64,000 nt of DNA from an uncultured Candidatus Saccharibacteria bacterium. Lineage in GTDB: Bacteria > Patescibacteriota > Minisyncoccia > Phycocordibacterales > UBA918. The notes under the pieces are model-generated. The model saw only the letters and a list, made by a program, of their open reading frames with translations. It searched no databases and was not told where the DNA came from. Below are positions 18,662 to 54,050 of the stretch, one piece after another. The stretch covers positions 78,316-142,315 of the forward strand of contig CAYGJY010000001.1 of the NCBI GenBank assembly GCA_964350645.1, given 5' to 3'. The translations under genes were made by a program, and so were the position numbers. The number at the start of each line of letters is the position of its first letter. Position 1 is the stretch's first letter.

Positions 18662-19648
18662 ATGAAATTAGCACAACATTTACAACCAGATATATTTTCT
18701 ACTACTGTTCCAAAGGAGGCTAATCGCGTTGGGTACGGCGAAGGCTTACTTGCAGCTGGCGAAACTAACGATAAGATCGTGGCACTCTGTGCTGACCTAA
18801 CTGAGTCGACCAAAACTCACCTTTTTGCTAATCAATTTCCAGAACGGTTTGTGCAGATTGGTATTGGTGAACAAAATATGGCGTCAGTCGCTGCAGGTAT
18901 GGCAGCAATGGGCAAGGTTCCTTTTATTGCTTCGTACGCCATGTTTTCTCCGGGTCGGAGCTGGGAACAGGTACGCACAACGATTGCGTATAATGATTCT
19001 AACGTGAAGATTGTTGGAGCTCATGCCGGTGTGTCGGTTGGGCCTGACGGCGCTACCCATCAAGCAATCGAAGATATGGCTATTATGCGCGTCATTCCAA
19101 ATATGATCGTGATCGCGCCCTGTGATGTGCATGAAGCTAGACGAGCAGTTGTCTGGGCAGCTGAGCATCAGGGGCCGGTGTATATTCGTGTTGCGCGTGA
19201 AGCGACACCGGTTATGACAACCGAGGACTCACCGTTCTCTTTTGGTCAGGCAGAGGTGTATCTCGAACCTGAAGATGCGGACACTAAGCGAGTTGCTATC
19301 ATTGGTTGCGGGCCATTGTTGTATGAAGCGATGTTAGCGGGTAAACAACTCAATGAGTCTGGTGTGGGGACAACAGTAGTAAATATGCCCACCGTCAAAC
19401 CGCTCGATACCACTATACTGGCTGAGCTAGCGGCTACATATGAACTGGTTGTAACAGTAGAAGAGCACCAACGAATCGGTGGACTTGGTAGTGCGGTGGC
19501 TGAATATTATGCTGATACTACGCCAAAGAAAATGCTTCGCGTGGGCGTTGACGATTCCTTTGGGGAGTCTGGTACTATCACGGAGTTGTACGAACGCTTT
19601 GGATTAGATGCCGCGAGTATCGTGCGTAAGATCCATGAAGTTTTATAG
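18662..19648 (+). CDS. tkt: Transketolase, C-terminal (pyrimidine-binding) subunit
   Basis: 328 aa directly following the N-terminal subunit; Pyr-binding and C-terminal domains. Confidence 0.9.
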   Translation: MKLAQHLQPDIFSTTVPKEANRVGYGEGLLAAGETNDKIVALCADLTESTKTHLFANQFPERFVQIGIGEQNMASVAAGMAAMGKVPFIASYAMFSPGRSWEQVRTTIAYNDSNVKIVGAHAGVSVGPDGATHQAIEDMAIMRVIPNMIVIAPCDVHEARRAVVWAAEHQGPVYIRVAREATPVMTTEDSPFSFGQAEVYLEPEDADTKRVAIIGCGPLLYEAMLAGKQLNESGVGTTVVNMPTVKPLDTTILAELAATYELVVTVEEHQRIGGLGSAVAEYYADTTPKKMLRVGVDDSFGESGTITELYERFGLDAASIVRKIHEVL

Positions 19649-20264
19649 CAATCAACAATCTGGTTTTACGCTACTTGAACTTTTGGTGGTAATAGCGATC
19701 ATTGGTATTTTAGCGTCTGGAGTAGCGGCGATAACAGGACCGGGTCGTGATAAAGCAACCAACACTTCTATTATTAAGCAAATGAAAGAATACCAACGGG
19801 TGCTCGACTTGCATTTGGCTAGTCCTTTCAATCGGGCTCCAAATAATTGGCTTGGATTAGCGAGTAATAATAATTTTTGCCGAGTGGCCTGTTTTGGAGA
19901 TGGTTTAGTGAATGGTGGGCCAGATTGTTTGGGTAATATTTCTCAGGGTGGTTCTCATCAAGTGACCTATTCTGATGAGGTTGAGGCTGTACTTCGTGAA
20001 GCGATGTCATCGTTACCACGTCATGAATTTGAGCCATATTCGGGACCAGCTTATAGTGCCTGTGTGTCACCTCTGGGATCTGGTTTCCAAAATAATAGTG
20101 ACGCAGGCAATATTGATCCAAGCGAACCTGGATATTTACAGCGACATTATAGCTTGTGGTATTTGTTGAAAGGTACTGGTCAGGATTGCGTATGGGGAGT
20201 TGTTGTTGAGTCAGACTTTGGTAACGCCGGTGTCGCAACATTGTGTAGATATAATGCACGGTAG
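19635..20264 (+). CDS. Type IV pilin-like protein (prepilin-type N-terminal cleavage/methylation domain)
   Basis: 'MKFYSNQQSG|FTLLELLVVIAIIGILA' class III signal. The ATG at 19635 overlaps the tkt stop by 14 nt. The track's upstream start (19608) lies inside tkt. Confidence 0.85.
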   Translation: MKFYSNQQSGFTLLELLVVIAIIGILASGVAAITGPGRDKATNTSIIKQMKEYQRVLDLHLASPFNRAPNNWLGLASNNNFCRVACFGDGLVNGGPDCLGNISQGGSHQVTYSDEVEAVLREAMSSLPRHEFEPYSGPAYSACVSPLGSGFQNNSDAGNIDPSEPGYLQRHYSLWYLLKGTGQDCVWGVVVESDFGNAGVATLCRYNAR

Positions 20265-26919: not shown

Positions 26920-26992
26920 TCGTCAACGTCAGTTGACGCCTCACAAAACCTAAAACAATCCGTAGATTGTTATGAGTAGATATGTATATCTG

Positions 26993-29936: not shown

Positions 29937-29971
29937 GCACGGCTCAGACTTTTGTAGTAGTATATTTATTC

Positions 29972-30700
29972 ATGGATGATTCAAGTACTAAGGGACACAA
30001 ACACCCACTTTCGCAGATGATTGCAGAAATCAATAGTATTTTTGCAGAAATCGGATTTGTCTTTGCTGAAGGCCCCGAAGCTGAAACAGAACATTATAAT
30101 TTTGATCAGCTCAACTTTCCCCCAGAACACCCAGCGCGTGACATGCAGGATACGTTTTTCTTCAAACGTGGTGATACGACTGAGCCGATGGTACTGCGTA
30201 CACATACCAGTCCAGTTCAGAGTCGTTACATGGAAAACCATGAGCCACCAATCCGGGTCATCGTGCCAGGTAAGGTCTTCCGCAACGAAGCGACTGATGC
30301 GACTCATGAAGCCCAGTTCCACCAGCTCGAAGGTCTGTATGTTGATGAGGGTGTACACCTGGGACATCTTAAGGGCACGCTCGAATATTTCTTTTCAAAG
30401 TTTTTCAGTGGGGAAACTGAAGTACGGTTTCGACCGAGCTTCTTTCCGTTTGTTGAACCAGGAGTTGAAGTTGATATGATGCTCAAAAATAGCGACAGCA
30501 AGCTAGCTAACAAATGGATCGAAATCATGGGAGCTGGGATGGTGCATCCAAATGTGCTCGAAGCTGCGGGAATTGATCATACTAAGTACTCGGGCTTTGC
30601 GTTTGGGATGGGAATTGATCGACTAGCGGTGATGAAATATGGTATTAGTGATATTCGAGATATGTATTCAGGTGACTTACGCTTCGTTAACCAATTTTAA
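29972..30700 (+). CDS. pheS: Phenylalanine--tRNA ligase alpha subunit (short form)
   Basis: 'FDQLNFPPEHPARDMQDTFF' and 'FRPSFFPFVEPGVEVD' class II motifs. Start at the internal ATG 29972 to avoid overlap with the upstream gene. Confidence 0.85.
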   Translation: MDDSSTKGHKHPLSQMIAEINSIFAEIGFVFAEGPEAETEHYNFDQLNFPPEHPARDMQDTFFFKRGDTTEPMVLRTHTSPVQSRYMENHEPPIRVIVPGKVFRNEATDATHEAQFHQLEGLYVDEGVHLGHLKGTLEYFFSKFFSGETEVRFRPSFFPFVEPGVEVDMMLKNSDSKLANKWIEIMGAGMVHPNVLEAAGIDHTKYSGFAFGMGIDRLAVMKYGISDIRDMYSGDLRFVNQF

Positions 30701-30702
30701 AT

Positions 30703-32640
30703 ATGAAAGTTTCACACAATTGGCTAAAAGAGTATTTAGGTGATACTGCGCCAGCGCCACAAGCGATGGCCGATTTATTGACATTTCATGCATTTGAAAT
30801 TGACGAGATTGTCGAGAAGGACGATGACACAGTCATCGATATCGATATTTTGCCGAATCGATCATCTGACTGTTTGTGTCATCGTGGCATAGCACGCGAA
30901 GTTGCTTCAATCATGAAGACACCGCTGGCACACGATCCGTTGTCGGTCGCACCACAGTTACCGGGGTTTACTAATATTGAGGTTGAAATAGAAAGTGCTG
31001 AAATCTGCCCCCGTTTCACAGCTACTCTTCTCACTGGAATTGAAGTGAAAGAATCGCCAGCGTGGCTTCAAGCACGTTTACAAGTAATTGGACAACGGCC
31101 AATCAATAATATCGTCGACGCTACAAACTATGTGATGTTTGCTCTTGGTCAACCACTGCACGCCTATGATGCCGATCTGTTTCCGCAAGTTGATGGTATA
31201 TGGAAGTTTGGTGTACGTACAGCCACTTCAGGTGAGACAGTCAGTCTCTTGGCAGAAGGTGGCAAAGATGAAGATCGAGTAATTGAACTTAGCGGCGGTG
31301 AAGTGTTGGTGGTTGATAGTTCGTCCAATACACCGATTGGACTAGCCGGAGTAAAAGGGGGTCGTTTTGCAGGGGTACATGCTGGTACGACTAAAGTAAT
31401 CATCGAAGCCGCTCACTGGAATCCACTTATAACTCGCAAAACTGCCCGCGGTCTTGGCATTGTTATTGACGCAAGTAAGCGTTTTGAAAATGAACCCTCA
31501 CGCGAATTGCCGCCCTACGCGCAAGCTGAAATTATCAAGCTCATCATAGTCATAGCCGGGGGCGTGTGTGAAGGGTATGTTGATACATTTTTGGAAGAAA
31601 AATCGAACCCAGCAGTAGCTGTTTCAGTAGACAAAGCTAATGCGCTGCTTGGATTGTCACTGAACCAAGTAGAGATGGTAGAACTCCTCACCAGCGCGGG
31701 TTGTCAGTGTACTGGTGTAGAGGGAACGATCACTGCTGTTGGACCTTTTGAACGAACTGACTTATTGATTGAAGAAGATTTCATTGAGGAGATTGGGCGA
31801 CTTTACGGGTACGACAAAGTGGCTTCAGTGGTGCCAGCAACTGTGCCACTGCAAGAGTTAAACGTTCGCCACTACTACAGTGAGAAGATCCGGACCGCAC
31901 TAATTAGGCAAGGCTTCTCGGAAGTAATTACATCGTCGTTTCGTAAAAAAGATGAGGTTGCGCTTTACAATGCACTTGCAAGCGACAAAGGGTGCATGCG
32001 GTCGTCATTGGTGAAAAATATTTCTGAGGCCCTCGAACGCAATGTAGGTTTTGCAGATTTGCTTGGGGCTACAGATACACGGATTTTTGAGATTGGGACT
32101 GTGTTTAAAAAAGGTGGGGAGTATGGCGTGACTGAGCATATGTCGTTGTGTGTGGGCGTACGTACGAAAGGGAAGGCGTACAGCAAGACTGATGATGTCG
32201 TTCTCGAAGCAGTTATTGCTGAGTTGACCAATGATCTCGATGCTAGTCTTAGTTTTGATATTTTTGATGGAGTGGCAGAGCTTAATCTGACTGAATTAAT
32301 CGCAGTTTTACCGGTGCCGGCAGCGTACGATCCCATTTTGGTCGCAACTGAGATTCAGTATCAGCCATATTCGACCTACCCACACGTCAGTCGTGATATT
32401 GCCCTCTGGGTAAGCGACGAGACTGCAGTGGAGAGCGTGATCGAGGTCATTGATCAGTCAGCTGGGGAGTTGCATGTGCTCACGACGCAATTTGATGAAT
32501 TTAGTAAAGACGGCCGAACGTCGTACGCTTTTCGTCTTGTGTTTCAGTCACACGAAAAAACGCTCACCGATGAAATGGTAAACGCTGACATGGAAGCGGT
32601 GTATGAAGCCGTGAAGAACGAAGGTTGGGAGGTCCGGTAA
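30703..32640 (+). CDS. pheT: Phenylalanine--tRNA ligase beta subunit (short, 645 aa)
   Basis: 'MKVSHNWLKEYL' N-terminus; B3/B4 and B5 regions; C-terminal FDX-ACB-like region. Confidence 0.85.
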   Translation: MKVSHNWLKEYLGDTAPAPQAMADLLTFHAFEIDEIVEKDDDTVIDIDILPNRSSDCLCHRGIAREVASIMKTPLAHDPLSVAPQLPGFTNIEVEIESAEICPRFTATLLTGIEVKESPAWLQARLQVIGQRPINNIVDATNYVMFALGQPLHAYDADLFPQVDGIWKFGVRTATSGETVSLLAEGGKDEDRVIELSGGEVLVVDSSSNTPIGLAGVKGGRFAGVHAGTTKVIIEAAHWNPLITRKTARGLGIVIDASKRFENEPSRELPPYAQAEIIKLIIVIAGGVCEGYVDTFLEEKSNPAVAVSVDKANALLGLSLNQVEMVELLTSAGCQCTGVEGTITAVGPFERTDLLIEEDFIEEIGRLYGYDKVASVVPATVPLQELNVRHYYSEKIRTALIRQGFSEVITSSFRKKDEVALYNALASDKGCMRSSLVKNISEALERNVGFADLLGATDTRIFEIGTVFKKGGEYGVTEHMSLCVGVRTKGKAYSKTDDVVLEAVIAELTNDLDASLSFDIFDGVAELNLTELIAVLPVPAAYDPILVATEIQYQPYSTYPHVSRDIALWVSDETAVESVIEVIDQSAGELHVLTTQFDEFSKDGRTSYAFRLVFQSHEKTLTDEMVNADMEAVYEAVKNEGWEVR

Positions 32641-32675
32641 GTTTGAGAAGGGGCAGTGCATGAGTCTGTCCCCGC

Positions 32676-32834
32676 TCACTCTTTTTCAACCGCTCCTTCC
32701 GTGTCGGTTTTTTTCTCCCAGCGGAGGAAGTCCCCTTTGGGGTTGAAAACTGCTACCTCGCCAGGGCGAGGAGCGCGATGCCCGAAGTGGCCGACTTCTT
32801 GTTGATAGATGGGAAGATGCCTTTCTGGTTTCAT
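32676..32834 (-). CDS. Small hypothetical protein (about 52 aa) with canonical AAGGAG Shine-Dalgarno; missed by the >=60-aa ORF track
   Basis: Manual translation of the minus strand gives MKPERHLPIYQQEVGHFGHRAPRPGEVAVFNPKGDFLRWEKKTDTEGAVEKE. A gaaAGGAGccagtaATG ribosome-binding site precedes it. Local GC (about 58%) is above the genome background. Coordinates are approximate (+/-2). Confidence 0.4.
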   Translation of the reverse strand: MKPERHLPIYQQEVGHFGHRAPRPGEVAVFNPKGDFLRWEKKTDTEGAVEKE

Positions 32835-32989
32835 TACTGGCTCCTTTCTGCGACCAGAGTACTCTCTGGATAAATGGTTGGCAAGTGATGCTGATAATCA
32901 CTTGGTCGTTCTTCAAGAGCAATATTTGAATATAAAAAACTCAGGAGGCGGTGCACTAATATTCTTATATTAGCGCACCACTCCAAAAG

Positions 32990-33259
32990 TTATTCCCCCC
33001 GTTTCCTTTTCCTGGCACGACCGTTTTTGGTTGTGCCCGGATTTACTGGCACAAACTCAAAGATCTTAGATATTGGTGACCCACGCCGTCGCATATAGCG
33101 CCTCGCAAAACGCTGGCTAGGATGCAGGATACCAGTCACTCCGCGAATCGTTACTTCTGTAAAGGCTTTAGGCCTGAGGGATTTTAATCCCTTGGTGCGG
33201 AAGTAGAGAGGTGGCTGAGACCCCTTGATTGCGATGACGAACATCAGTGATTTTGTCAT
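32990..33259 (-). CDS. Small basic (Arg/Lys-rich) hypothetical protein, about 90 aa
   Basis: The internal ATG (MTKSLMFVIAIKG..) is preceded by a strong AAGGAGGA Shine-Dalgarno; the track's TTG start is 17 codons upstream. The C-terminus 'NGRARKRKRGE' suggests nucleic-acid binding. No family was recognised. Confidence 0.5.
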   Translation of the reverse strand: MTKSLMFVIAIKGSQPPLYFRTKGLKSLRPKAFTEVTIRGVTGILHPSQRFARRYMRRRGSPISKIFEFVPVNPGTTKNGRARKRKRGE

Positions 33260-33354
33260 TGAACTCCTCCTTTTCACACGAAATCTAGCAATAATTTGTG
33301 AAACTAGCAAGTCAAAATATCTGTTATAATAACCGCATTATTTCTTAACAGTAG

Positions 33355-35433
<2,079 letters not shown>

Positions 35434-35576
35434 AGAAATAAGAAGCAGCACGGCTGTGGCTATATTTCTCTTGTGCAAATCAGTGAAATTTTCTGAACCT
35501 GTGATAGGTCTGAAAATGAACATGATCTTACTTAGCCAGCCATACTTACTTTGTAAGGGCAAAATAAAATAACACA

Positions 35577-35610
35577 AACGGCCGGTCCCTCTGGGGCCGG
35601 CCGTTTGTTA
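35577..35610. terminator. Bidirectional terminator between gyrB (+) and 35626..36750 (-)
   Basis: aacggccggtccc-tct-ggggccggccgttt flanked by A-rich and T-rich runs. Confidence 0.75.
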
Positions 35611-35625
35611 TATGGAGAGTGATTA

Positions 35626-36750
35626 TTATTCAACAACACTGACAGCCCAGGTAAAGCTGTTGTTGGTGCTGTTTACGTCGCTACCACCGCGGACGGTGAC
35701 ACCGATCAGGTTGATACCGTTCTCACCAACATTGTCATAGCCAAGGGTGAAGAGGACGCGCTCTTGTGGCTTCAGTGGAGTTTGCGCAGGGGCATCGTAT
35801 TCAGTACCAGAGGTAAGCATTGCTTTAAAGTCCCACGCAGTTGAAGTTTTGGTACCGATGTTGCGCACTTCGAACTGGAAGGCACCACGAGCGTCATTGT
35901 CGACATTTGCACGTGGAATAAAGTTTCCGTTACTGGCGAGGTGACCGACGGCGACGAGACGCACTGCGAGATCAGTTCGGCCATTTGGGTCAGATACGGG
36001 TGTTTCCATCACTACTGTTTCAATCACAGTTGGTGCTGGCGGCAGTGGCGTACTGACTTCTGGTTCTGGTTCAGGATCAACTTCGGTCGATTCACCGGCT
36101 ACTTCTGGTTTAGGAGTATCTTCCGATTCGTCCTCGCCTTCAGTTGATTCGTCGATTGCAACAGTATCGCCATCAGGAATACTGGGGTTGATAACAGTTA
36201 TAGAATTACTGGAGATAGTCACTGGCTCGGCTTCTCCCTGGCGGAAGTAAGCGATAGCGTACTCGACGTCGCTCATTCGCTCGCGTTCTGAATCAATCAT
36301 AACTTCTAGCGATGTCATCTTGTTGCCAAGGGTGACTGAGTCGTTACAAGGTACGAGAGTTGGACTGCCAGTGTTTTCAGTGATAGTCACGGCAACACCA
36401 TCAGTACACGTGTACATAAAGGTATATGCACCAGAGCCAGGGATACTGGTCCAGTTAATCATGAAGGAGTCACCTGACATGACTGAGCTATTGTCAGTTG
36501 AGACGGTTAGCTCAGGAGTACCGTTGGCGTTGTAGACACCGTCAGCGATTGATGCCAGCGAGGTGAAAGCCTGAGGCATGAGACTAACGATTTGCACCGC
36601 GAGCCAGACACCGAGAATGATCACGGCCATAAATCCGAAGATAGCAAGCGTTTTCATTAGTCGGTCTTTTTGTGAATCGTGTACCTGGTTCATAAAAAAG
36701 TTGAAAATAATAATCTTCACCACGGTGATGTCTCCCGTTGCAACAAACAC
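35626..36750 (-). CDS. Membrane-anchored secreted protein of unknown function (N-terminal TM, acidic E/P-rich linker)
   Basis: 374-aa ORF with TM 'LAIFGFMAVIILGVWLAVQIV' and linker 'EGEDESEDTPKPEVAGESTEVDPEPEPEV'. The true start is probably an internal Met (MNQVHD.. at about 36693 or MKTLAIF at about 36657). Confidence 0.65.
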   Translation of the reverse strand: MFVATGDITVVKIIIFNFFMNQVHDSQKDRLMKTLAIFGFMAVIILGVWLAVQIVSLMPQAFTSLASIADGVYNANGTPELTVSTDNSSVMSGDSFMINWTSIPGSGAYTFMYTCTDGVAVTITENTGSPTLVPCNDSVTLGNKMTSLEVMIDSERERMSDVEYAIAYFRQGEAEPVTISSNSITVINPSIPDGDTVAIDESTEGEDESEDTPKPEVAGESTEVDPEPEPEVSTPLPPAPTVIETVVMETPVSDPNGRTDLAVRLVAVGHLASNGNFIPRANVDNDARGAFQFEVRNIGTKTSTAWDFKAMLTSGTEYDAPAQTPLKPQERVLFTLGYDNVGENGINLIGVTVRGGSDVNSTNNSFTWAVSVVE

Positions 36751-36871
36751 CTACCCGTGTGATCGAAGTAGGGGAATGAGCGACATACATTGGAGAACAA
36801 GCCACTGGGGCAAATAACTCCATGATCATATCACACTATAAGCTAATGTCAAGTAATTATAGGCGTATTGT

Positions 36872-36899
36872 TTGACAAATAGATTATTGTATGTATAAT
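36872..36899 (+). promoter_or_regulatory. Sigma70-like promoter for the sortase gene (TTGACA-16nt-TATAAT)
   Basis: Perfect consensus hexamers about 43 nt upstream of ATG 36943. Confidence 0.55.
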
Positions 36900-36942
36900 A
36901 TTTCGAATCTATGTTAGTCTAATTCGGCTAACCAGACACTGT

Positions 36943-37698
36943 ATGTATTCACTTGAACGATTATTTGATCGAATGTGGGCCCGCAAGCTACCGTTTTTCG
37001 GAGTTTTTTTTGTGGTGGTTTTATTGACCTACACCGTGCTGTTTATTATTGATTTTATCCCAGAACCAATTTCTGATACCGATGAAGTGAATTCTGACGG
37101 TGTTGTAGCGGTTGTTGAAACGAACGGTGAACCGTTTAGTATTGAAGCGGCTGATATTCCGGCGGTTGAGCCGCTTACTGTTGGGACGACATCTGAAACT
37201 GAAACGACCATTGCGGTCGTGCCAGCTACCGGTGACAGCCAACCTCTCCCGCCAGCAGAAGTGTTGCCAACTAAGATTATTATTGAAAAATTAGCCAAAG
37301 AAGTGACGGTATTAAACCCCCAAGAACGTGACATCCCGTCACTTGATGCCGCGCTTTTAAGTGGTGTGGTGCGTCACCCTGACTCAGCCGACTTCAGTGA
37401 ACCAGGAAATATCTTTATTTTAGGCCATTCCAGCTACTTGCCAAACGTGTTTAATAAGAATTTCCAGGCGTTTAATGGCATCCAAGAGCTCGATTGGGGG
37501 GATAAGATTCAGCTGCAGTCAGCCGGAAAGGAATACACCTACTTTGTCGAAGAGGTGTATAAAGCTGCTGCTGCAGATGTAATTGTCCCGATGACTCCGG
37601 GGAAATCTCGCCTAACTTTGGCGACCTGCAATAGTTTTGGTTCAAAAGATGATCGCTTTATCGTTGAGGCCAAGCTCGTGTCTGAACGGATACTGTAA
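36943..37698 (+). CDS. srt: Sortase (transpeptidase) with N-terminal TM
   Basis: 'NIFILGHSSY' (His), 'LTLATCNSFGS' (TLxTC Cys) and a downstream Arg in 'DRFIVEAK'; N-terminal hydrophobic anchor. Confidence 0.8.
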   Translation: MYSLERLFDRMWARKLPFFGVFFVVVLLTYTVLFIIDFIPEPISDTDEVNSDGVVAVVETNGEPFSIEAADIPAVEPLTVGTTSETETTIAVVPATGDSQPLPPAEVLPTKIIIEKLAKEVTVLNPQERDIPSLDAALLSGVVRHPDSADFSEPGNIFILGHSSYLPNVFNKNFQAFNGIQELDWGDKIQLQSAGKEYTYFVEEVYKAAAADVIVPMTPGKSRLTLATCNSFGSKDDRFIVEAKLVSERIL

Positions 37699-38215
37699 TG
37701 AACCGTAGCTAGTTTCGGTTGTACCTTTCTAAGCCCGCTCCTTAGGCTCAGAAACCAGTAACCCAAACTAAACAGAGATTAGGCAAGACTATTGACTTTT
37801 GTCAACTTTTCTGCTATGATTGTGGTCAATTCTGTTCTTGTGGCACACTGTACCTGGTTGCAGTAGATGTGCTCAGATCTCCTTATTTTACAACTCGATA
37901 GCCAGCTTAGTGCTCGGAAATCATCCGTGGATGATCCGAGGTTTCTTAGTACCAAGCTCGCTGCCGTGATGTTGCTCAGTGGAGTAACAGGCAGATGGAC
38001 GAACTGATCTTTGTCATTAAAGAACAGGTTATTGGAAACGGAAAAGACGGGGGCCAGTGTGCAGGGAAACTTGCCTTCTTGGCACACTGGCCCCCGTCTA
38101 CCTCCTCAACGGGTACCCGAAAGGGAATCCCGTGAGGGATCGGCTACGACTTTTGTTGTATTTGACTTCCACCCCGGCCGGCGCTTCGCGCCGGCCAAAC
38201 CGAAAGGACTAAGGC

Positions 38216-39031
38216 ATGAAACTGCACCTCGCGGCCCTCGCGGCCGCTTTCACCCTCGCCACCGCCGGCTTGCCGGCGTTGGCGCAGACCGCCGTCGGCA
38301 CGGTTATCACCGCGCCGGCTCCCGCTCCGACAGAGCCCGACGAAATGGGCTACGTCGGGAAGGACGTAGCCGCCAGGGTCGACCTGGTGGTCGAGCTCCT
38401 GGATCTCGGAGCTTTCTGCGACCCCACCGTGAAGGCGACGGAGGTCCAGTACACCATCGGCGGACGCACCTTCAAGGTTGCGTTCACCGGCGGGAAGCTC
38501 GTCGCCGGAAGCAAGGAGGTCGACTATATCTGTCCGCTCTCCTTTGCCCCGGCCGACTGGGCCGCGGCGGACTGGGCCGAAGCCCACTTCACTGACCGCC
38601 TGCACGACCGGGTCTTCTTCACCGAAGGGGATCTGAAGACGTGCATGCTGCCGGGCATCGCCGACGGTCTGCGTCAGACGGGTCCGGAATTCTTCGACGG
38701 TTTCTCGGTCCACAACCACGACGGCGATGCGATCGTGAAGGCCTTCATCGACGGCCGGGCCAATCTCATGACCTGGCGGTGCGAAAGCACCGACGGGAAA
38801 CGCCGCTACCTCATGATCGAGGCGAAGTTTTGCCCCACCGGTTGCGGGGGGGCGGACTTCATCTGGCTCCACGCCAGCAAGAGCGAGCGGCGGGCTGCCA
38901 AGCCCGCCGCCGCACTGAAAGAAGAGAAGGACGTGTGCCCAGCATCGGGCCCATGCCCGTCACCGGGTGACCCGGTGACGCCGCCGGCGGCGAATGATCG
39001 CCTCAAGTTCAGCTGCTGCAAGGGCGGTTGA
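38216..39031 (+). CDS. Secreted Cys-rich protein of unknown function, encoded in the high-GC island
   Basis: Signal peptide MKLHLAALAAAFTLATAGLPALA; 12 Cys including the C-terminal 'KFSCCKGG'; RBS aaAGGActaaggcATG. Confidence 0.7.
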   Translation: MKLHLAALAAAFTLATAGLPALAQTAVGTVITAPAPAPTEPDEMGYVGKDVAARVDLVVELLDLGAFCDPTVKATEVQYTIGGRTFKVAFTGGKLVAGSKEVDYICPLSFAPADWAAADWAEAHFTDRLHDRVFFTEGDLKTCMLPGIADGLRQTGPEFFDGFSVHNHDGDAIVKAFIDGRANLMTWRCESTDGKRRYLMIEAKFCPTGCGGADFIWLHASKSERRAAKPAAALKEEKDVCPASGPCPSPGDPVTPPAANDRLKFSCCKGG

Positions 39032-39127
39032 ACGGAGCTCTGCGGGCCGGAACATTCACCGGCCCGCAGCAGACTATTTGTTAAATCCTTGCATCAACCA
39101 CAACCAACAGCCAAGGGGTAAAAAACC

Positions 39128-39817
39128 ATGCTGAAGACTCTGATCGCGGCCTTCTTGGCCGTCACACTCGGTTCAATGGTGCATGCCGGAGAGCCAAAAT
39201 TCGCGCCCGCCGATCTGGTGATCTCGACGGAAGGCCTCGAGCCGGTCGCTGGCACGCCGTGCGACACGATCAACGATGAGTGCCTTTCGCTGCAGATCAT
39301 CACCGCCGTCGAAACACCCGAGCTTCTCGCGGAGCTTCGGAAGAACGACGGCCAGACCCCGCGCGGGTCGGTCGTGCTCGACGCCCTCAACAAAGGCGAG
39401 GCGGCCATTCCGAAGCCGATCGATGGGTACTGGTGCGTGTGGTTCTACAAGGAGGCTCTGAATACCTATGAGCTGCCGTGGGATCTCATTCACACCACTT
39501 CCTTCATGACGACTTCGTCCGGCATCGTTCGCGACGCAGAGTTTATGAAGGGCGACTGCCCGACGATCACCAACGCCGTGGGCTACGGTGACCCGGACTT
39601 CAAGATCTGGGCACCAGCCGGTCCCGTTGGGACTGCGCTGAACATTCCGAAGGCGATGCGGGACAAGCTGCTCGTCGCCTTCTGGTGCAGCGAGGACGGC
39701 ACGATCATCTTCCCGAATCGGATCACATCCGATGAGGGTCTGCGGATCGACATTCCGCTGATCGAAAAAGGCTGGGAGCATGCAATGTATGGCGTGCTCC
39801 GGGCCAAGGAGAAGTGA
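39128..39817 (+). CDS. Secreted protein of unknown function, encoded in the high-GC island
   Basis: Signal peptide MLKTLIAAFLAVTLGSMVHA; 6 Cys; RBS caAGGGGtaaaaaaccATG. Confidence 0.7.
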   Translation: MLKTLIAAFLAVTLGSMVHAGEPKFAPADLVISTEGLEPVAGTPCDTINDECLSLQIITAVETPELLAELRKNDGQTPRGSVVLDALNKGEAAIPKPIDGYWCVWFYKEALNTYELPWDLIHTTSFMTTSSGIVRDAEFMKGDCPTITNAVGYGDPDFKIWAPAGPVGTALNIPKAMRDKLLVAFWCSEDGTIIFPNRITSDEGLRIDIPLIEKGWEHAMYGVLRAKEK

Positions 39818-39840
39818 GACCTGTTCTTCTCTGACTCAGG

Positions 39841-39877
39841 CGAAACTGGCCGCAGTGATGCACCCAGTTTCGCCCTT
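39841..39877 (+). terminator. Intrinsic terminator-like hairpin at the right edge of the high-GC island
   Basis: ggcgaaactgg ..14-nt loop.. ccagtttcgcc followed by cttct. Confidence 0.55.
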
Positions 39878-39943
39878 CTAATATTCTTGCGTACTGGTGT
39901 AGGTAAGAATATCTGAGGTATTATAAAAACTAGATTTTCAATT

Positions 39944-42900
39944 ATGTTTACTCAAAAAACAATCGCAGTCTTTATTATCGCTTTTTCACTAGCGGTAGTT
40001 TTTAGTGCACCATTTACTAATGATCAGACTGGATCAATCGTTGACGCAGTAGCTGGCGCATTTGGCCCTGGAGGCGGCGACGGTGGTGATGGTGCCGGCG
40101 GTGCAGACGGTGGTGGAGCTGGTGGCGATGGTCCTGGAGGTGGTAATGGTGGTAATGGTCCTGGTGGATCTGAAGGCGGTTGTTGCGGCGGCGACATTGG
40201 CGGTGGTCGTAATGATGAACCTGGTCGTGACGATCCTGGTGTAGTACCAGCTCCTTCATGTGTCCTTAAGGTGAACAATAAAAATCAACTGACTATCACT
40301 CAAGGTGACACAGTCACGTATACGTTGACCTCAAAAAATGCTGTTTCAGCAAATTTGACAGGTAAGGGAGCGATCAATATCAATGGTCAACCATTGGTAA
40401 CTAAGATCACTACTGCAGGACAGGGACGTCAGATTAGTGCTCGGGTATTTAACGCGAGTGGTCAGTCTGCCATTTGTTCAGTAACCCTTAATGTCAACGA
40501 AAAGCCTGCACCAGATCCTGCTCCAGTATGTACAGCAAAATTTATTCCCACTTCTGTGCAGGTAAATACTCCCGCAACCCTGCAGATCAATGGTTCAAAC
40601 CTAGCTTCTGCTTCTGTAAACAACGGTGTTGGCGCAGTAACTGTTGCTCCAAATAATGCGGGTAGCAAGTCAGTCACCCAAACAACCGTTGGAAAGAAAA
40701 CCTACACCGTAACCGTAACTAACAACCAAGGTCTTACTGGATCTTGTACAGCAGATCTGACGACTACTCCAGTACCGGTAGTTGTTCCTAACCAAACTTG
40801 TACCCTTTCACCAGCAACTCAGGAAGTAACTGTGGGTGAAACGGCAAAGCTTACTTGGAGATCTACTAACGCTGACTCAGTCACGGTCAAGCGAAACGGT
40901 GGTTCAATTTCAACTTCTAAAAATGAAACTAATTTTGCTCAGACACTCGGGGTTGGAACCTTTAATTACGAACTGACAGCAGTAAAAGCGGGTAAGACAG
41001 ATGTAAAATGTAACGCAACGATTGTGGTTAAGCCAGCTGTTGTTGGAGGACTCTCATGTGCAGCTAACCTAACAACATTTACGGCAGCACCAAGTAATCT
41101 GCCAGCTGGTGGTGGTAATACTACGTTGGTGTGGGCAGCGACTGGAGTTGATTCAATCGAAATTGATAACGGCGTTTTGGCGAACACCACAACTCTAAGC
41201 GGTAATGACACAGTGTCAGTAGCTCAAACAATTACCTACAAACTTAAGCTGATCAAAGCAGGTACAACTCCAGTTGAGTGTCCTTTGACGGTCACGGTTG
41301 CTCCAGCGATTACACCGCTAACGTGTGCTGCTAATGTTACCTTCACGGGTAATGGTTCAGCTGGAACGGTGAACTTGCCATCAAGCGGTGGCGATGTTGC
41401 TCTAGCGTGGACAGTAACTGGCGCTGACTCAATCGAGATCAACAACGGTGTTCTAGCAAATACAGCGACACTTATTGGAGACAATACTCAGACTGGAATT
41501 ACGGCTGACAAGACCTTTACGCTTAAGGCATTCAAGGCAGGAACAACCCCAATTGAATGTCCACTGCTTGTTGATGTAGCAACTGGCGGCGGCGGATCAT
41601 CTGATCCAGTCTGTCAGTTTGATGTTACTCCGACGAACTTCACCAATGGAACTGGTGGATCAGTATCACTCAATTGGAGCTCAACCAACGCTGATTCAGT
41701 TACTCTCGACGGTGTCGAGGTTGCCCTAAACGATACAATTACTAAAAACGTTACCACCCTTGGAAATACAACCTTTACGATTGTAGCTACGAAGGGAAGT
41801 AAGACTGATACCTGTACTAAGACTGTGACGGTATCGAATCCAGGCACGAGTAACCTTTCATGTGACAGCTTTACCTCTAATCGAGATGAGGTTGGAACCG
41901 GAAATAACTATACTCTTTCATGGAATACAACTGGAGCGACACTCGTCACAATCAATCAGGGTGTTGGCATCGTAGCGGCGGATGATTCAGTTGAACTTAC
42001 TGCTCCAAATGATGAACAAACAATTGACTATACTTTGACGGCTACTGATGGTACTAACTCAGTGACTTGCCCATTGTCTATTCGAGTTGATGGTGGCGGA
42101 GGTGGTGGGGGTGGTGGTTCATCAAGCCCACGCTGTACGTTTACTGCATCTGACCGTTCAATCCGTTCTGGACAAGAAATTGAATTAACGTGGACAACCC
42201 GTAGCGGACGAGACCTCAGTATTTTTGAAGGTTCAGTGCGCAACGGTGAGAAACTTCTCGAAACCGATGATGATGACACGGTTGATGAGGGCTCACTTAA
42301 GGTTCGGCCGACAGAAGATACTACCTATACACTTTTGGTAGAGCGAGGTTCACGAGATCGAGAATGTGATGTAGAAATTAAGGTTGAAGACAATGTCGTG
42401 GTTACCTCAGTTCGAAACCAAGGTCAGGTTGCTGGTATTTCGCTTACATCTGTACCGTACACAGGATTTGAAGCTGGCCCGATGCTTACTCTTCTCTTCT
42501 ACGCGATCCTTGCTGTCTGGGCTTTGTTCATCGCTTACTTACTTGTGATTAAAGAAGATCGAGTATTGGGTATCTCACTCGCTGGTGCGTTCCCAAAGAA
42601 AAAGATTTTGACTGATGATGTCAGTACTATAGCTACTGATGTTCACACTGAAACGTCAGAAGCAGCAGCGTATGTAGCGTCAATGACAGCACAAACAACT
42701 GCGACAGTACCACTCGCTACGGCTGCTCCAGTAACATCGGCTCCAGCTATCCCAACTAATCTACCAATCGCGAGCCCGATCATTGGGTATGCTAATACTC
42801 CAGTTGATGACACTCTAGAAGCAATTGATGCTGAAGACGAAGCGAGTCAAGAAATGAAAGAGCTAGAAGATCGAGCACACGCGAACAAGGTTTTGCTCTC

Positions 42901-43453
42901 AAGTGACGCAATGCGACATTTCCTGACTATGTGTCCAAAAGAAATCAATCGCCTAACGTTTCTAGATCAAGTGATTGCCGAAGCTAAGGTCTCGTACCCA
43001 TCTGAAGATGGTTGGGTGGTCCTTAACCTCGAGCGAATGCATGAATTGTGTGATAAACGAATGGCGTACATGAATACTGGCACTGAGTCAGTAATGGTGG
43101 CTGAAGACAAGAAAGTCATGTCAGCAACTGATACCGTGACCGTACCTGAAGGTTCTGGTTCGCTTGCTGAAGCGATTGTGACGGGTAATATTGCAGCGGC
43201 GTACCAACTACTTGGTAATCGTCCAATGATTTCACTGGCCGATGCAGCCGCTGATCTCGATGCGCTCTACCGAACCAGAAAAGGTGAAGACGTGAGTATT
43301 TCAAACATGCTCGCAACTGAATCAGCTGACTTGTCGGTTGCACAGATTGAAGCAGCGATTGCCGCTCTGACTTCAGCGATTGATGGTACATACACGGACG
43401 AAGCTGCAGCTGTGAAGATGGCGATTATGAAGGCTGTTAAGGCAACTGCTTAA
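39944..43453 (+). CDS. Type-I membrane protein: signal peptide, Gly-rich linker, Ig-like repeats bracketed by cysteines (7 recognisable; about 9 is a rough count), single TM, cytoplasmic domain of about 300 aa
   Basis: The repeats are about 95-100 aa, each starting and ending with Cys and carrying a conserved Trp ('..LTWRSTNADSVTV..', '..LVWAATGVDSIEI..', '..LAWTVTGADSIEI..', '..LNWSSTNADSVTL..'). 'GGGGGGGGSS' spacer. TM 'GPMLTLLFYAILAVWALFIAYLLV' followed by 'KEDR' and a 300-aa soluble tail. Confidence 0.8.
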   Translation: MFTQKTIAVFIIAFSLAVVFSAPFTNDQTGSIVDAVAGAFGPGGGDGGDGAGGADGGGAGGDGPGGGNGGNGPGGSEGGCCGGDIGGGRNDEPGRDDPGVVPAPSCVLKVNNKNQLTITQGDTVTYTLTSKNAVSANLTGKGAININGQPLVTKITTAGQGRQISARVFNASGQSAICSVTLNVNEKPAPDPAPVCTAKFIPTSVQVNTPATLQINGSNLASASVNNGVGAVTVAPNNAGSKSVTQTTVGKKTYTVTVTNNQGLTGSCTADLTTTPVPVVVPNQTCTLSPATQEVTVGETAKLTWRSTNADSVTVKRNGGSISTSKNETNFAQTLGVGTFNYELTAVKAGKTDVKCNATIVVKPAVVGGLSCAANLTTFTAAPSNLPAGGGNTTLVWAATGVDSIEIDNGVLANTTTLSGNDTVSVAQTITYKLKLIKAGTTPVECPLTVTVAPAITPLTCAANVTFTGNGSAGTVNLPSSGGDVALAWTVTGADSIEINNGVLANTATLIGDNTQTGITADKTFTLKAFKAGTTPIECPLLVDVATGGGGSSDPVCQFDVTPTNFTNGTGGSVSLNWSSTNADSVTLDGVEVALNDTITKNVTTLGNTTFTIVATKGSKTDTCTKTVTVSNPGTSNLSCDSFTSNRDEVGTGNNYTLSWNTTGATLVTINQGVGIVAADDSVELTAPNDEQTIDYTLTATDGTNSVTCPLSIRVDGGGGGGGGGSSSPRCTFTASDRSIRSGQEIELTWTTRSGRDLSIFEGSVRNGEKLLETDDDDTVDEGSLKVRPTEDTTYTLLVERGSRDRECDVEIKVEDNVVVTSVRNQGQVAGISLTSVPYTGFEAGPMLTLLFYAILAVWALFIAYLLVIKEDRVLGISLAGAFPKKKILTDDVSTIATDVHTETSEAAAYVASMTAQTTATVPLATAAPVTSAPAIPTNLPIASPIIGYANTPVDDTLEAIDAEDEASQEMKELEDRAHANKVLLSSDAMRHFLTMCPKEINRLTFLDQVIAEAKVSYPSEDGWVVLNLERMHELCDKRMAYMNTGTESVMVAEDKKVMSATDTVTVPEGSGSLAEAIVTGNIAAAYQLLGNRPMISLADAAADLDALYRTRKGEDVSISNMLATESADLSVAQIEAAIAALTSAIDGTYTDEAAAVKMAIMKAVKATA

Positions 43454-43479
43454 GCAATTCCTCAACAAGCTGTTTAAAG

Positions 43480-43516
43480 CACGAAAAAGCCGCCCGTACG
43501 GGCGGCTTTTTCGTGC
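43480..43516. terminator. Bidirectional terminator between the Ig-repeat gene (+) and thrS (-)
   Basis: cacgaaaaagccgccc-gtac-gggcggctttttcgtg, a perfect 16-bp palindrome. Confidence 0.8.
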
Positions 43517-52831: not shown

Positions 52832-53359
52832 ATGAAATCACTGCGATCGTCTAAGTTGGGCTTCACTCTTATTGAAGTAATAGTAGTGGTAGGGATTATT
52901 GGCCTCCTGACTTCCATAGTCCTGTTTTCTGTCAGTCAAGCTCGTGCAGAAGTGAGGGATAAAAAAAGAATTATTGATATTGAACAATATCAGCTAGCAT
53001 TTCGACTGTATAGTGAACAATATGGGAGTTTGCCTGTTTGTGGTAGTGGCGCATATCTTCGGGGGGCAGGAATTGTCGATGCTGGATCAACATGTACTGA
53101 TTTAGCCACTATGCAGACATTTTTCGACGAAGTGTTTGGGGAACTTCCTACTGATCCTTTAGATGACGCTTCTGGTCCTTCAGATTATGTATATTTTTAT
53201 GACAGTGATCACAGCGCTTGTGGTAGCGGTCAAGCAATTATTGCCATTAGACAAATGGAAGATACTCCTCCAGCTAATGATGCAACTGCTTGTGGCGGAC
53301 TTGGCAGTGACGGTGAAATGAATACAGCTACAAACCCCTATGTTATCTTTTTGCCATAG
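52832..53359 (+). CDS. Type IV pilin-like protein (prepilin N-terminal methylation domain)
   Basis: 'MKSLRSSKLG|FTLIEVIVVVGIIGLLTSIVL'. Confidence 0.85.
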   Translation: MKSLRSSKLGFTLIEVIVVVGIIGLLTSIVLFSVSQARAEVRDKKRIIDIEQYQLAFRLYSEQYGSLPVCGSGAYLRGAGIVDAGSTCTDLATMQTFFDEVFGELPTDPLDDASGPSDYVYFYDSDHSACGSGQAIIAIRQMEDTPPANDATACGGLGSDGEMNTATNPYVIFLP

Positions 53360-53426: not shown

Positions 53427-54050
53427 GTGAAAATACTATTAAATCGTACTCGAGGGTTCACATTGATGGAAGTGATGGTGGTGATAGCCATTATTGGTAT
53501 TCTTACGTCAGTGATATTGTTTTCGATTAGTGACGCGCGAGCGAGTGCCCGTGATAAACAACGCTTGGTTGATTTAAAAAATCTAGAACTCGCCCTCGCG
53601 CTCTACTATGAGATTAATAATGAATATCCTCCACAAGGTTGCGGAGCAACTGGTGGATGGACAGGTCCAGGCGTGATTGATGCTGAATACCAACAGCCCG
53701 CTAATTTAACTGATGGGTGTGATGAATACATTGAAGGTTTAGCTCCTGTGTATATACCGGCATTACCAATTGACCCTAAATTTGAAGATGATGCGAGTAA
53801 TCCGGGTTGGGGGTATCTGTATAGAACCAACGGTGCAAGGTCTGCGTATAAGGTGATGGCACATCTGTCTGTTGAAAAAGCTCAAATAACATCTAATGAT
53901 GATGAGTATGCTCGGCGGTCAAATGCTTGTTTTAATCCATCAGGAGCTGATCCTTTGTACGGTTTAGACCCTTTTCAGCCGGGCGTGTATGCTGTGTATG
54001 GCGGTTCCGATGGAACTAATGATGTAACAACTGACTCAGCTTGTTGGTAA
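53427..54050 (+). CDS. Type IV pilin-like protein (prepilin N-terminal methylation domain), GTG start
   Basis: 'MKILLNRTRG|FTLMEVMVVIAIIGILTSVIL'. Confidence 0.85.
   Translation: MKILLNRTRGFTLMEVMVVIAIIGILTSVILFSISDARASARDKQRLVDLKNLELALALYYEINNEYPPQGCGATGGWTGPGVIDAEYQQPANLTDGCDEYIEGLAPVYIPALPIDPKFEDDASNPGWGYLYRTNGARSAYKVMAHLSVEKAQITSNDDEYARRSNACFNPSGADPLYGLDPFQPGVYAVYGGSDGTNDVTTDSACW

Follow-up and report, generated by a model that had tools for sequence, protein, structure and literature searches.

Between a sortase gene and the gene of a large surface protein, the genome of an uncultured bacterium of the Patescibacteriota, recorded as Candidatus Saccharibacteria, carries an island of 1831 bp with two genes for small secreted proteins. 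The island occupies positions 38045-39875 of a 64,000-nucleotide stretch of contig CAYGJY010000001.1 (78,316 to 142,315), called the window below, and contains 62.7% guanine plus cytosine (GC), against 46.4% in the remainder of the window. How did so deviating a segment come to lie in this genome? An examination of the letters alone, referred to here as the sequence-only reading, suggested that the genes had been acquired from a high-GC donor such as an actinobacterial or proteobacterial host. Our results point in another direction. We consider it probable, though far from certain, that the island is a surface cassette which is exchanged laterally, much like a serotype locus, and stems from a pool of genes that differ from the resident genome in both composition and translation signals.

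A sharply bounded island

Segments of the same length taken elsewhere in the window (586 in all) have a mean GC of 0.465 (sd 0.021, maximum 0.517), which places the island at z=7.9. The slightly wider span picked out by the sequence-only reading, 38041-39880, comes to 62.5% GC (its own estimate was about 65%). Both borders are abrupt, the shift taking place inside about 50 bp; at the right border GC drops from 0.59 to 0.28 (39875/39876). Non-coding DNA takes part in the deviation: the 171-bp leader of the island has 61% GC, the host-type spacers to the left and right 44% and 28%, respectively. Since the leader is GC-rich as well as the genes, the anomaly belongs to the DNA segment and goes beyond codon choice. 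Among the 49 genes of the window (median 0.42), GC at third codon positions (GC3) exceeds 0.56 in the two island genes only. High-expression codon bias was ruled out as the cause, as the ribosomal-protein and EF-Ts genes of the window have GC3 of 0.29-0.36. The second-highest GC of the window (0.52-0.54) is found at its start, in the region of two adjacent huge open reading frames (ORFs; 91-4674 and 4696-11142, 1527 and 2148 aa), the latter with a signal-peptide-like N-terminus.

Logan contig L002 (also numbered L037; 16.5 kb, from run ERR3534981) matches window 29944-43508 with 100% identity and spans both junctions, and contig L001 (run ERR3534985, 1919 bp) is 100% identical to 37990-39908. 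Two independent assemblies thus give exactly the same junctions and the island is not a chimera, in agreement with the sequence-only reading, which had regarded it as internal to the genome. The genome was detected in these two runs only, with identical sequences, and our literature search found no paper on either run. In ERR3534985 the island forms the separate contig L001, whose ends lie 55 bp and 33 bp beyond the GC borders (at 37990 and 39908). These ends may be roughly those expected from graph branching at k=31, if the sample also contained a strain whose slot is empty or holds a different cassette.

The ORF list of the island contains no integrase or transposase and no extra ORF. No direct repeats were found flanking its borders. 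ARAGORN and Rfam at gathering thresholds gave no tRNA or known RNA there, the sole tRNA in the window being tRNA-Thr at 26992. When 37690-38230 was scanned permissively with Rfam, generic hairpin matches alone came up and no riboswitch. The island is surrounded by an inverted repeat (38013-38029 and 39819-39835) with 14 of 17 positions matching (p ~0.005-0.007). Terminal inverted repeats, as of a miniature inverted-repeat transposable element, were nevertheless rejected: of the related loci described below, L038 has a similar repeat, L040, L049, L052 and L046 have none, and there is no common sequence.

A conserved slot with diverged contents

With the window sortase as query, 34 related loci were retrieved, all of them from Patescibacteria (record labels Kaiserbacteria, Paceibacteria, Nomurabacteria and Saccharibacteria). 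Their gyrB is 76-87% and their sortase 44-57% identical to the window counterpart. The order gyrB - p374 (minus strand) - sortase - slot - palindrome - surface protein - ThrRS - DnaE is kept in at least 34 loci, and the island of the window occupies the slot. In 7 of the 34 relatives the slot is empty (150-350 bp). Filled slots measure 0.7-4.5 kb and hold between one and three small genes on the plus strand. Their products have signal peptides or lipoboxes and fall into at least seven families without detectable relation to each other. We found no paper in the literature on sortase loci of this clade. Another slot gene, FamC (~400 aa), is present in L007 (7313-8542), L011 (12068-13258), L028 (10657-11880) and L032 (10729-11949). 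Its proteins are 45-56% identical between genomes, with an N-terminal transmembrane (TM) helix and no Pfam family; unlike the remaining slot genes, FamC has background GC and no Shine-Dalgarno motif.

Both island genes have relatives in this slot. Protein 1 is collinear with slot proteins of L012 and L011, sharing with them the motifs GGKLxxGSKxxxxxCPL, (E)FTDxxLH and CGG..W.HxxK, a proline-rich linker and a C-terminal CxxC, and a profile search extended this family 1 by P0003-P0006. P0011, encoded in L040, is 48% identical to protein 1 over 164 aa (E=1.5e-50) and P0013 is 50% identical over 127 aa (E=4e-39). In L040, the sortase gene (GC 0.43) is followed by the gene of P0011 (0.61, GC3 0.75), a 216-aa family-2 gene (0.61, GC3 0.76) and the surface-protein gene (0.46). 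In L038 the order is sortase, P0005, a 229-aa gene and the surface protein; protein 2 is of equal length to the 229-aa product and matches it by BLASTP with 25% identity over 161 aa (E=1e-4), with cysteines aligned. Leave-one-out hidden Markov models (HMMs), built without the window proteins and run on 4913 ORFs, ranked each of the two as the best non-member: protein 1 with E=0.0098 (runner-up 0.66), protein 2 with E=1.2e-4 (runner-up 0.8). On the strength of these matches together with identical order and position, we take both homologies as real.

The same two-gene layout, in the same order and slot, is present in L039/L012, L043-45, L046 (from a sponge metagenome) and L047-L053 as well. Altogether, diverged homologues of both genes were found, in matching order, at the slot position of the window in L038, L039/L012/L047-49, L040/41, L043-45, L052, L046 and L011. 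The sequence-only reading had set against itself the case that the same genes occur at genomic GC in all relatives. This came true in part: related genes do occur in several relatives, but their GC is elevated, not genomic.

Slot alleles move between lineages

Lateral replacement takes place at the slot in these relatives. Between L052 and L043/44, the sortase is 88.5%, the surface protein 93% and the family-1 protein 75% identical; the family-2 proteins share 24% and their genes have no nucleotide similarity. Compared with L038, in turn, L052 has a family-2 protein that is 82% identical, with a sortase of 71% and a surface protein of 52%. Replacement is seen even within one species: L047/48 and L049/39/12 have flanks identical at 99.4-99.9% and different family-2 alleles, one set carrying the type of L043 and the other the type of L038. 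The L047 alignment breaks at 6785, the 3' end of the family-1 gene, and resumes at 7793 in the surface-protein gene. L047 and L050/51 differ by 10-12% of nucleotides in family 1 and have surface-protein genes 99% identical. The nearest family-1 relative of the window is L040, yet of all sortases in the comparison that of L040 is the most distant (45%), and in family 2 no similarity to it was detectable. This discord of sortase, family 1 and family 2 indicates that the two cassette genes have separate, mosaic histories.

A shared signature of slot genes

The composition of the island is not peculiar to the window. All 16 family-1 and family-2 genes, from 10 genomes, exceed their flanks in GC3, by 0.25 on average (range 0.13-0.42), and the largest excess of all loci (+0.42) is that of the window allele. 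Most cassette genes have GC3 of 0.69-0.83; the only lower values come from the two genomes poorest in GC (0.45 in L011, 0.54 in L026; Pearson r=0.66). When all small signal-peptide-bearing slot genes are taken together (at least seven families), 31 of 31 lie above their own background GC, by 0.04-0.20.

The second component of the signature concerns translation. Shine-Dalgarno-like motifs stand before both island genes (AAAGGA/TAAGG before the ATG of gene 1, AAGGGG before gene 2), as the sequence-only reading had noticed. Counting the 5-mers AAGGA, AGGAG and GGAGG, we found them ahead of 12 of 16 family-1 and family-2 genes and 17 of 18 other slot genes (29/34 together). Resident genes carry them in 2 of 45 cases in the window and in none of 30 flanking genes of relatives (from L011, L026, L034, L038, L040, L046, L047 and L052), so that the foreign look ascribed to the ribosome-binding sites of the island is justified. 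The resident genes of L028 and L032 are rich in GC (GC3 ~0.8) yet without Shine-Dalgarno motifs, while the slot genes of these two genomes carry them. The trait is therefore not a by-product of GC, and compensation for GC-rich mRNA by Shine-Dalgarno motifs was ruled out by the same resident genes. A literature search for Shine-Dalgarno usage, or its near absence, in Patescibacteria found no paper.

Polarised substitutions, a weak test, were counted as GC-to-AT versus AT-to-GC changes. The ratios were 14:16 and 35:34 in family 1, and 29:17, 19:9 and 39:28 in family 2, the latter with a modest GC-to-AT excess; in this test the counts give no sign of fast decay to host composition.

The search for a donor

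A word-indexed search of 5.8 billion proteins with both island proteins returned self-matches only. An exhaustive profile search of 1.84 billion representatives found only 18 members of family 1, P0011 and P0013 among them; all recoverable contexts had synteny of the Patescibacteria type, and no uniformly high-GC genome was among them. The host-derived donor proposed by the sequence-only reading thus found no support, as the protein searches gave no homologue outside such contexts. A first metagenome scan with the close subfamily gave no match, and the 19-member alignment varied too much for search patterns to be designed from it. In tblastn, protein 1 had no match in the phage and plasmid collections and protein 2 none in the plasmids, the one collection compared with it, and an IMG/VR scan with the protein-1 subfamily found nothing. 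Phage or plasmid origin was rejected on the lack of phage, plasmid and IMG/VR matches and of any meaningful PHROG match. The high-GC relatives L028 and L032 are not obvious donors either: they contain neither family 1 nor family 2, and their resident genes are not led by Shine-Dalgarno motifs. When 20 further slot proteins were compared with Pfam, no family was found for any of them, which argues against a source in well-sampled phyla.

The cassette proteins and their surroundings

Features of the locus are collected in Table 1. Both genes lie on the plus strand, and the N-termini of both products resemble Sec-type signal peptides when judged by eye: MKLHLAALAAAFTLATAGLPALA followed by QT in protein 1 and MLKTLIAAFLAVTLGSMVHA followed by GE in protein 2. 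Signal peptides, lipoboxes or N-terminal TM anchors are likewise predicted from the sequences of other slot proteins. Protein 1 terminates in FSCCKGG, so that the C-terminal SCCKGG of the sequence-only reading is correct; its twelve cysteines have to be reduced to ten (residues 68, 106, 143, 189, 206, 210, 241, 247, 267 and 268). Protein 2 has five. Neither protein contains a sorting signal, composed of a C-terminal LPXTG-type motif, a hydrophobic helix and a basic tail, and therefore they are not sortase substrates. That the proteins belong to no recognisable family agrees with the lack of matches in Pfam, NCBIfam, PHROGs, PADLOC and PDB sequences; fold matching gave no match.

Table 1. Coordinates of genes and non-coding elements at the slot (window numbering)
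Feature	Position	Strand	Description
Sortase gene, left flank of slot	36943-37698	+	251 aa; Pfam PF04203, E=1.5e-18; weak class D/E sortase matches in NCBIfam
Host-type spacer	37699-38044	+	44% GC
Sigma-70-like promoter match	37792-37820	+	TTGACT-17-TATGAT, extended TG, 10/12 matches
Spacer hairpin including GTGCTCGGAAA	~37900-37962	+	GTGYTCGGAAA motif
Island leader, non-coding, left island edge	38045-38215	+	61% GC; AAAGGA Shine-Dalgarno motif directly before ATG
Cassette gene 1 (family 1)	38216-39031	+	271 aa; GC by codon position 0.64/0.51/0.83
Layout of protein 1			Signal peptide; N-terminal beta domain ~40-105; alpha/beta domain ~112-221; proline-rich linker; C-terminal CC motif
Intergenic GC-rich hairpin	39040-39069	+	CTGCGGGCCG-gaacattcac-CGGCCCGCAG; no T-run after; read from sequence
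Cassette gene 2 (family 2)	39128-39817	+	229 aa; overall GC 0.60; GC by codon position 0.58/0.44/0.79
Right-edge hairpin	39839-39874	+	Arms 39839-39854/39859-39874; inverted repeat I5, 88% complementary; then CTTCTAATATTCTT
Host palindrome, right slot anchor	39881-39912	.	ATATTCTTGCGTAC-n4-GTAGGTAAGAATAT; inverted repeat I25; ~30 bp upstream of surface-protein gene
Large surface protein, right slot flank	39944-43453	+	1169 aa; N-terminal glycine-rich GGxxGGCCGG motif; repeated domains

Two minus-strand ORFs of 242 and 202 aa were rejected as real genes. Their GC peaks at codon position 1, and they are antisense shadows of the island genes. In contig L002 (ERR3534981_35854), the Logan gene calls are these shadow ORFs (8201-8929 and 9230-9838, corresponding to window 38144-38872 and 39173-39781, all on the minus strand). 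In ERR3534985_82776 the island genes are called on the correct strand. Gene callers may thus choose antisense shadow ORFs in GC-rich islands, which is a hazard for annotation.

The leader of the island starts with a hairpin (38045-38099) that has a perfect 18-bp stem (inverted repeat I2, 100% complementary) and contains three more. Its RNA folds at -97.8 kcal/mol (z=-7.0) and its sequence is unique in the window. The hairpin with the GTGYTCGGAAA motif, located in the preceding spacer, recurs after the sortase gene in L003 (10812), L040/41 (L040 1592) and L044/45 (L044 723) with any cassette family; it could be a terminator of the sortase gene or a leader element of slot genes. A terminator scan did not call the intergenic hairpin an intrinsic terminator. 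The right-edge hairpin probably marks the end of transcription.

On the right side, the palindromic sequence ATTCTNNCGTAC-N(1-10)-GTAGGTNNGAAT is found exact at the equivalent position in 12 distinct relatives (L005, L006, L014, L015, L018, L029, L034, L035, L038, L040 and L043/45), including L029 with its empty slot, although the sortases are merely 45-60% identical. Its probable role is that of an operator or promoter element of the surface-protein gene, on which a regulator would act.

Upstream of the slot, the assignment of a sortase made by the sequence-only reading was confirmed by the PF04203 match. Downstream, the surface protein contains an LPXTG-like sequence, VPYTGFEAGP (aa 837-846, from nt 42452), followed by a TM helix, a basic stretch and a tail of about 300 residues; it has no family in Pfam or NCBIfam. 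The combination of VPYTG(H)FEAGP, TM helix and lysine/arginine residues (window 42452-42560, aa 837-870) is present in 17 relatives. This conservation makes the 1169-aa protein the probable substrate of the adjoining sortase. Some 300 residues after the TM helix are unusual in a sortase substrate. In L040, the region matching the sorting signal is split into ORFs of 481 and 257 aa.

The GGxxGGCCGG motif of the surface protein lies at about 40160-40200 (aa ~75-85) and is present also in the N-termini of its homologues in L005, L013, L038, L040 and L046. Since family-1 proteins terminate in CC or CxxC, it is conceivable that the two sets of cysteines are linked by disulfides or through a metal. 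Elsewhere in the window, three small ORFs (19608-20264, 52832-53359 and 53466-54050) have N-termini resembling those of type IV pilins (GFTLLELLVVIAIIGILA, GFTLIEVIVVVGIIGLL and MEVMVVIAIIGILT, respectively).

Origin of the island

The signature of high GC and Shine-Dalgarno motifs is shared across slot families, so that the anomaly is better regarded as a property of a gene pool than as the scar of one recent import from a high-GC host. We propose that the island is the allele, in this genome, of a hypervariable slot conserved in a Paceibacteria/Kaiserbacteria-like group of Patescibacteria. The site of the slot is bounded by the sortase gene on one side and, on the other, by the gene of its probable VPYTG-bearing substrate, just upstream of which the palindromic control element lies. 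Its cargo in the window consists of one gene from each of two orphan families of secreted, cysteine-containing proteins. Deeply diverged alleles pass laterally among lineages and strains, presumably via recombination in the conserved flanks, and the pool of circulating cassettes would not equilibrate in GC with any single resident genome. We infer that slot alleles are under diversifying selection and that their products, secreted or located at the surface, act together with the sortase-anchored protein in host contact.

Several points weigh against this proposal. The polarised counts, a weak test, are only roughly balanced, and the proposal offers no mechanism for keeping GC high. The top GC contrast of the window (+0.42 in GC3) and its GC-rich, structured leader, not seen at other loci, would fit a more recent import from a GC-richer source, and the slot pool as a whole, being GC-rich, led by Shine-Dalgarno motifs and equipped with lipoboxes, resembles genes of ordinary GC-rich bacteria. 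Swapping of alleles was seen in related species; the population of the window itself yields identical copies only. The homology of protein 2 to family 2 is weak (E ~1e-4), weaker than that of protein 1 to family 1, and relies on synteny. A donor missing from databases does not prove that no donor exists, and the functions of the cassette proteins are throughout ones that we infer.

What, then, of the other origins? A recent private acquisition of the two genes from a high-GC donor outside the candidate phyla radiation (CPR), for example an actinobacterial or proteobacterial host, would account for the contrast of 62.7% with 46.4% GC, for GC3 of ~0.8, the sharp borders and GC-rich non-coding parts, for canonical Shine-Dalgarno motifs within a genome poor in them, and for the largest GC3 contrast of all loci; empty slots in relatives and the 14/17 inverted repeat around the island are in line with it too. 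We nevertheless consider it distinctly unlikely. Searches of 5.8e9 and 1.84e9 proteins and of phage, plasmid and viral collections gave no homologue beyond Patescibacteria-type contexts. In at least 8 other genomes, the slot is filled by a two-gene cassette homologous to that of the window. Protein 1 is conserved between the window and L040 as much as the sortase (48% and 45%), the borders lack integrase, tRNA and direct repeats, and the border inverted repeats do not recur across loci. Of the earlier claim of foreign acquisition, the foreign look and lateral transfer at the locus remain, and the recent import from such a host is not supported. A joining of a foreign high-GC fragment into a CPR contig during assembly, to which one might attribute the strong compositional jump, the 1919-bp contig of ERR3534985 ending 55/33 bp outside the island and the many family members on contigs of 1-3 kb, is extremely improbable: the 16.5-kb contig from another run and assembler crosses both junctions at 100% identity, unrelated projects with unrelated assemblers yielded the same architecture for more than 10 other genomes, and the island, complete with a leader and a terminator hairpin, fits precisely into a single intergenic gap.

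The cassette might instead be ancient and vertically inherited, its GC being held high in place by a locus-specific force. Candidates for this force are GC-biased gene conversion (gBGC), if the slot is a hot spot of recombination, and selection acting on expression or on the structure of the mRNA; no outside pool would be needed. Such a force would explain why the GC excess is universal over deep divergence, why cassette genes are lower in GC3 in the two genomes poorest in GC (0.45 in L011, 0.54 in L026; r=0.66), the near balance of family-1 substitutions (14:16, 35:34) and the strongly structured leader, and recombination is demonstrably frequent at the slot. We think this origin improbable all the same, as the histories of cassette and flanks conflict and descent is not simply vertical, and as FamC genes in the slot stay at background GC, so that position alone has no GC-raising effect. 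In L028 and L032, GC-rich residents lack the Shine-Dalgarno motifs that their slot genes have, and the trait does not come from GC. As far as is known, effects of gBGC in bacteria fall far short of +0.25 in GC3. The two genes might also encode a secreted polymorphic toxin (or bacteriocin) and the immunity or partner protein cognate to it, the pair moving as one module as in other loci of polymorphic toxins. Such a pair would look in many respects alike: a variable two-gene unit with deeply diverged alleles, lateral exchange and atypical composition, whose proteins are both predicted to be exported and both contain cysteine. Loci of polymorphic toxin type are also common in organisms living in contact with other cells. 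To this possibility we give little credence. Family 2 was swapped while family 1 was kept (24% against 75% identity), which breaks cognate coupling; no toxin, immunity, defence or phage family and no fold matched; and some slots hold one or three genes of other families.

The laterally exchanged cassette that we favour can be carried one step further, although only tentatively and with more doubt than belief. The slot might be a dedicated landing site, fed by a lateral pool of orphan secreted-protein genes with a GC-rich, Shine-Dalgarno-led "dialect" of their own. Such a pool could be kept by an unrecognised locus-specific process or be drawn continually from an unsampled source, for example the hosts of these epibionts. 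The allele in the slot might then set which host cell can be attached to, so that host range would be determined in a serotype-like manner.

Comparison with known systems

The closest parallels in architecture are the O-antigen (rfb) and capsule clusters of enterobacteria and pneumococci. They too comprise a variable segment between conserved flanking genes with many deeply diverged alleles at one site, replaced wholly or partially by recombination, including within species, and persistently atypical in composition. Atypical composition of these loci is usually taken as a sign of transfer between species; in Salmonella, segments of 28-45% GC in a genome of 51-52% were said to need explanation (PMC3715488). 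The slot differs in its cargo of one to three small secreted proteins in place of polysaccharide-synthesis enzymes, in the upward direction of its GC deviation, in Shine-Dalgarno-led cargo within Shine-Dalgarno-poor hosts, and in that these hosts are Patescibacteria. The likeness to serotype loci is one of architecture read from sequence, and a serological or host-range effect of the slot is offered here as a hypothesis only.

Sortase-dependent pilus and adhesin clusters of Gram-positive bacteria resemble the locus in that the sortase gene adjoins a large repetitive surface protein with VPYTG, TM helix and basic stretch, small exported proteins being encoded between the two here. Unlike in those clusters, the cassette proteins have no sorting motif, the substrate has a tail of ~300 aa after the TM helix and no pilin or Ig-fold family was found by Pfam. 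Like classical horizontally acquired islands, the locus is sharply bounded, deviates in GC and codon usage, carries accessory cargo and is missing from some relatives. It departs from them in having no integrase, tRNA target or direct repeats and no identifiable donor, in carrying homologous cargo at the same site over a deep clade, and in showing no sign of decay to host composition. Of four marks of a donor-derived island, the locus thus has the composition and lacks three (a donor, mobility genes and absence of the cargo from relatives). Three marks of a serotype-like locus are present: a fixed site, diverged or non-homologous alleles, and, in related species, replacement between near-identical flanks. 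Exposure of the products at the cell surface would be a fourth, together with a part in the specificity of interaction; signal peptides, lipoboxes or N-terminal TM anchors read from the sequences make it a prediction.

A case within Patescibacteria is known from a genome of Gracilibacteria (BD1-5), where extreme local variation at a putative surface-protein locus broke the assembly and the authors saw diversifying pressure, possibly linked to host association (PMC6851277). That variation consists of nucleotide-level repeat (PTD) differences inside one gene, in contrast to the whole-gene replacement seen here, and the slot in addition bears a compositional and Shine-Dalgarno signature.

Implications

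It is unusual, and lacks an accepted explanation, that a signature of composition and translation persists over genomes so deeply diverged. At this locus, anomalies of GC and ribosome-binding sites are no marker of recent transfer from host to symbiont, and caution is due where they might be read as such. To our knowledge, the ways in which environmental Patescibacteria recognise their hosts and attach to them are largely unknown, and no member of this clade has been cultivated. The slot, being hypervariable, laterally swapped and filled with secreted cargo between a sortase and a VPYTG-bearing surface protein, provides a concrete candidate for a determinant of host interaction or specificity. 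Metagenomes allow its alleles to be typed, and these can be compared with the hosts found in the same samples.

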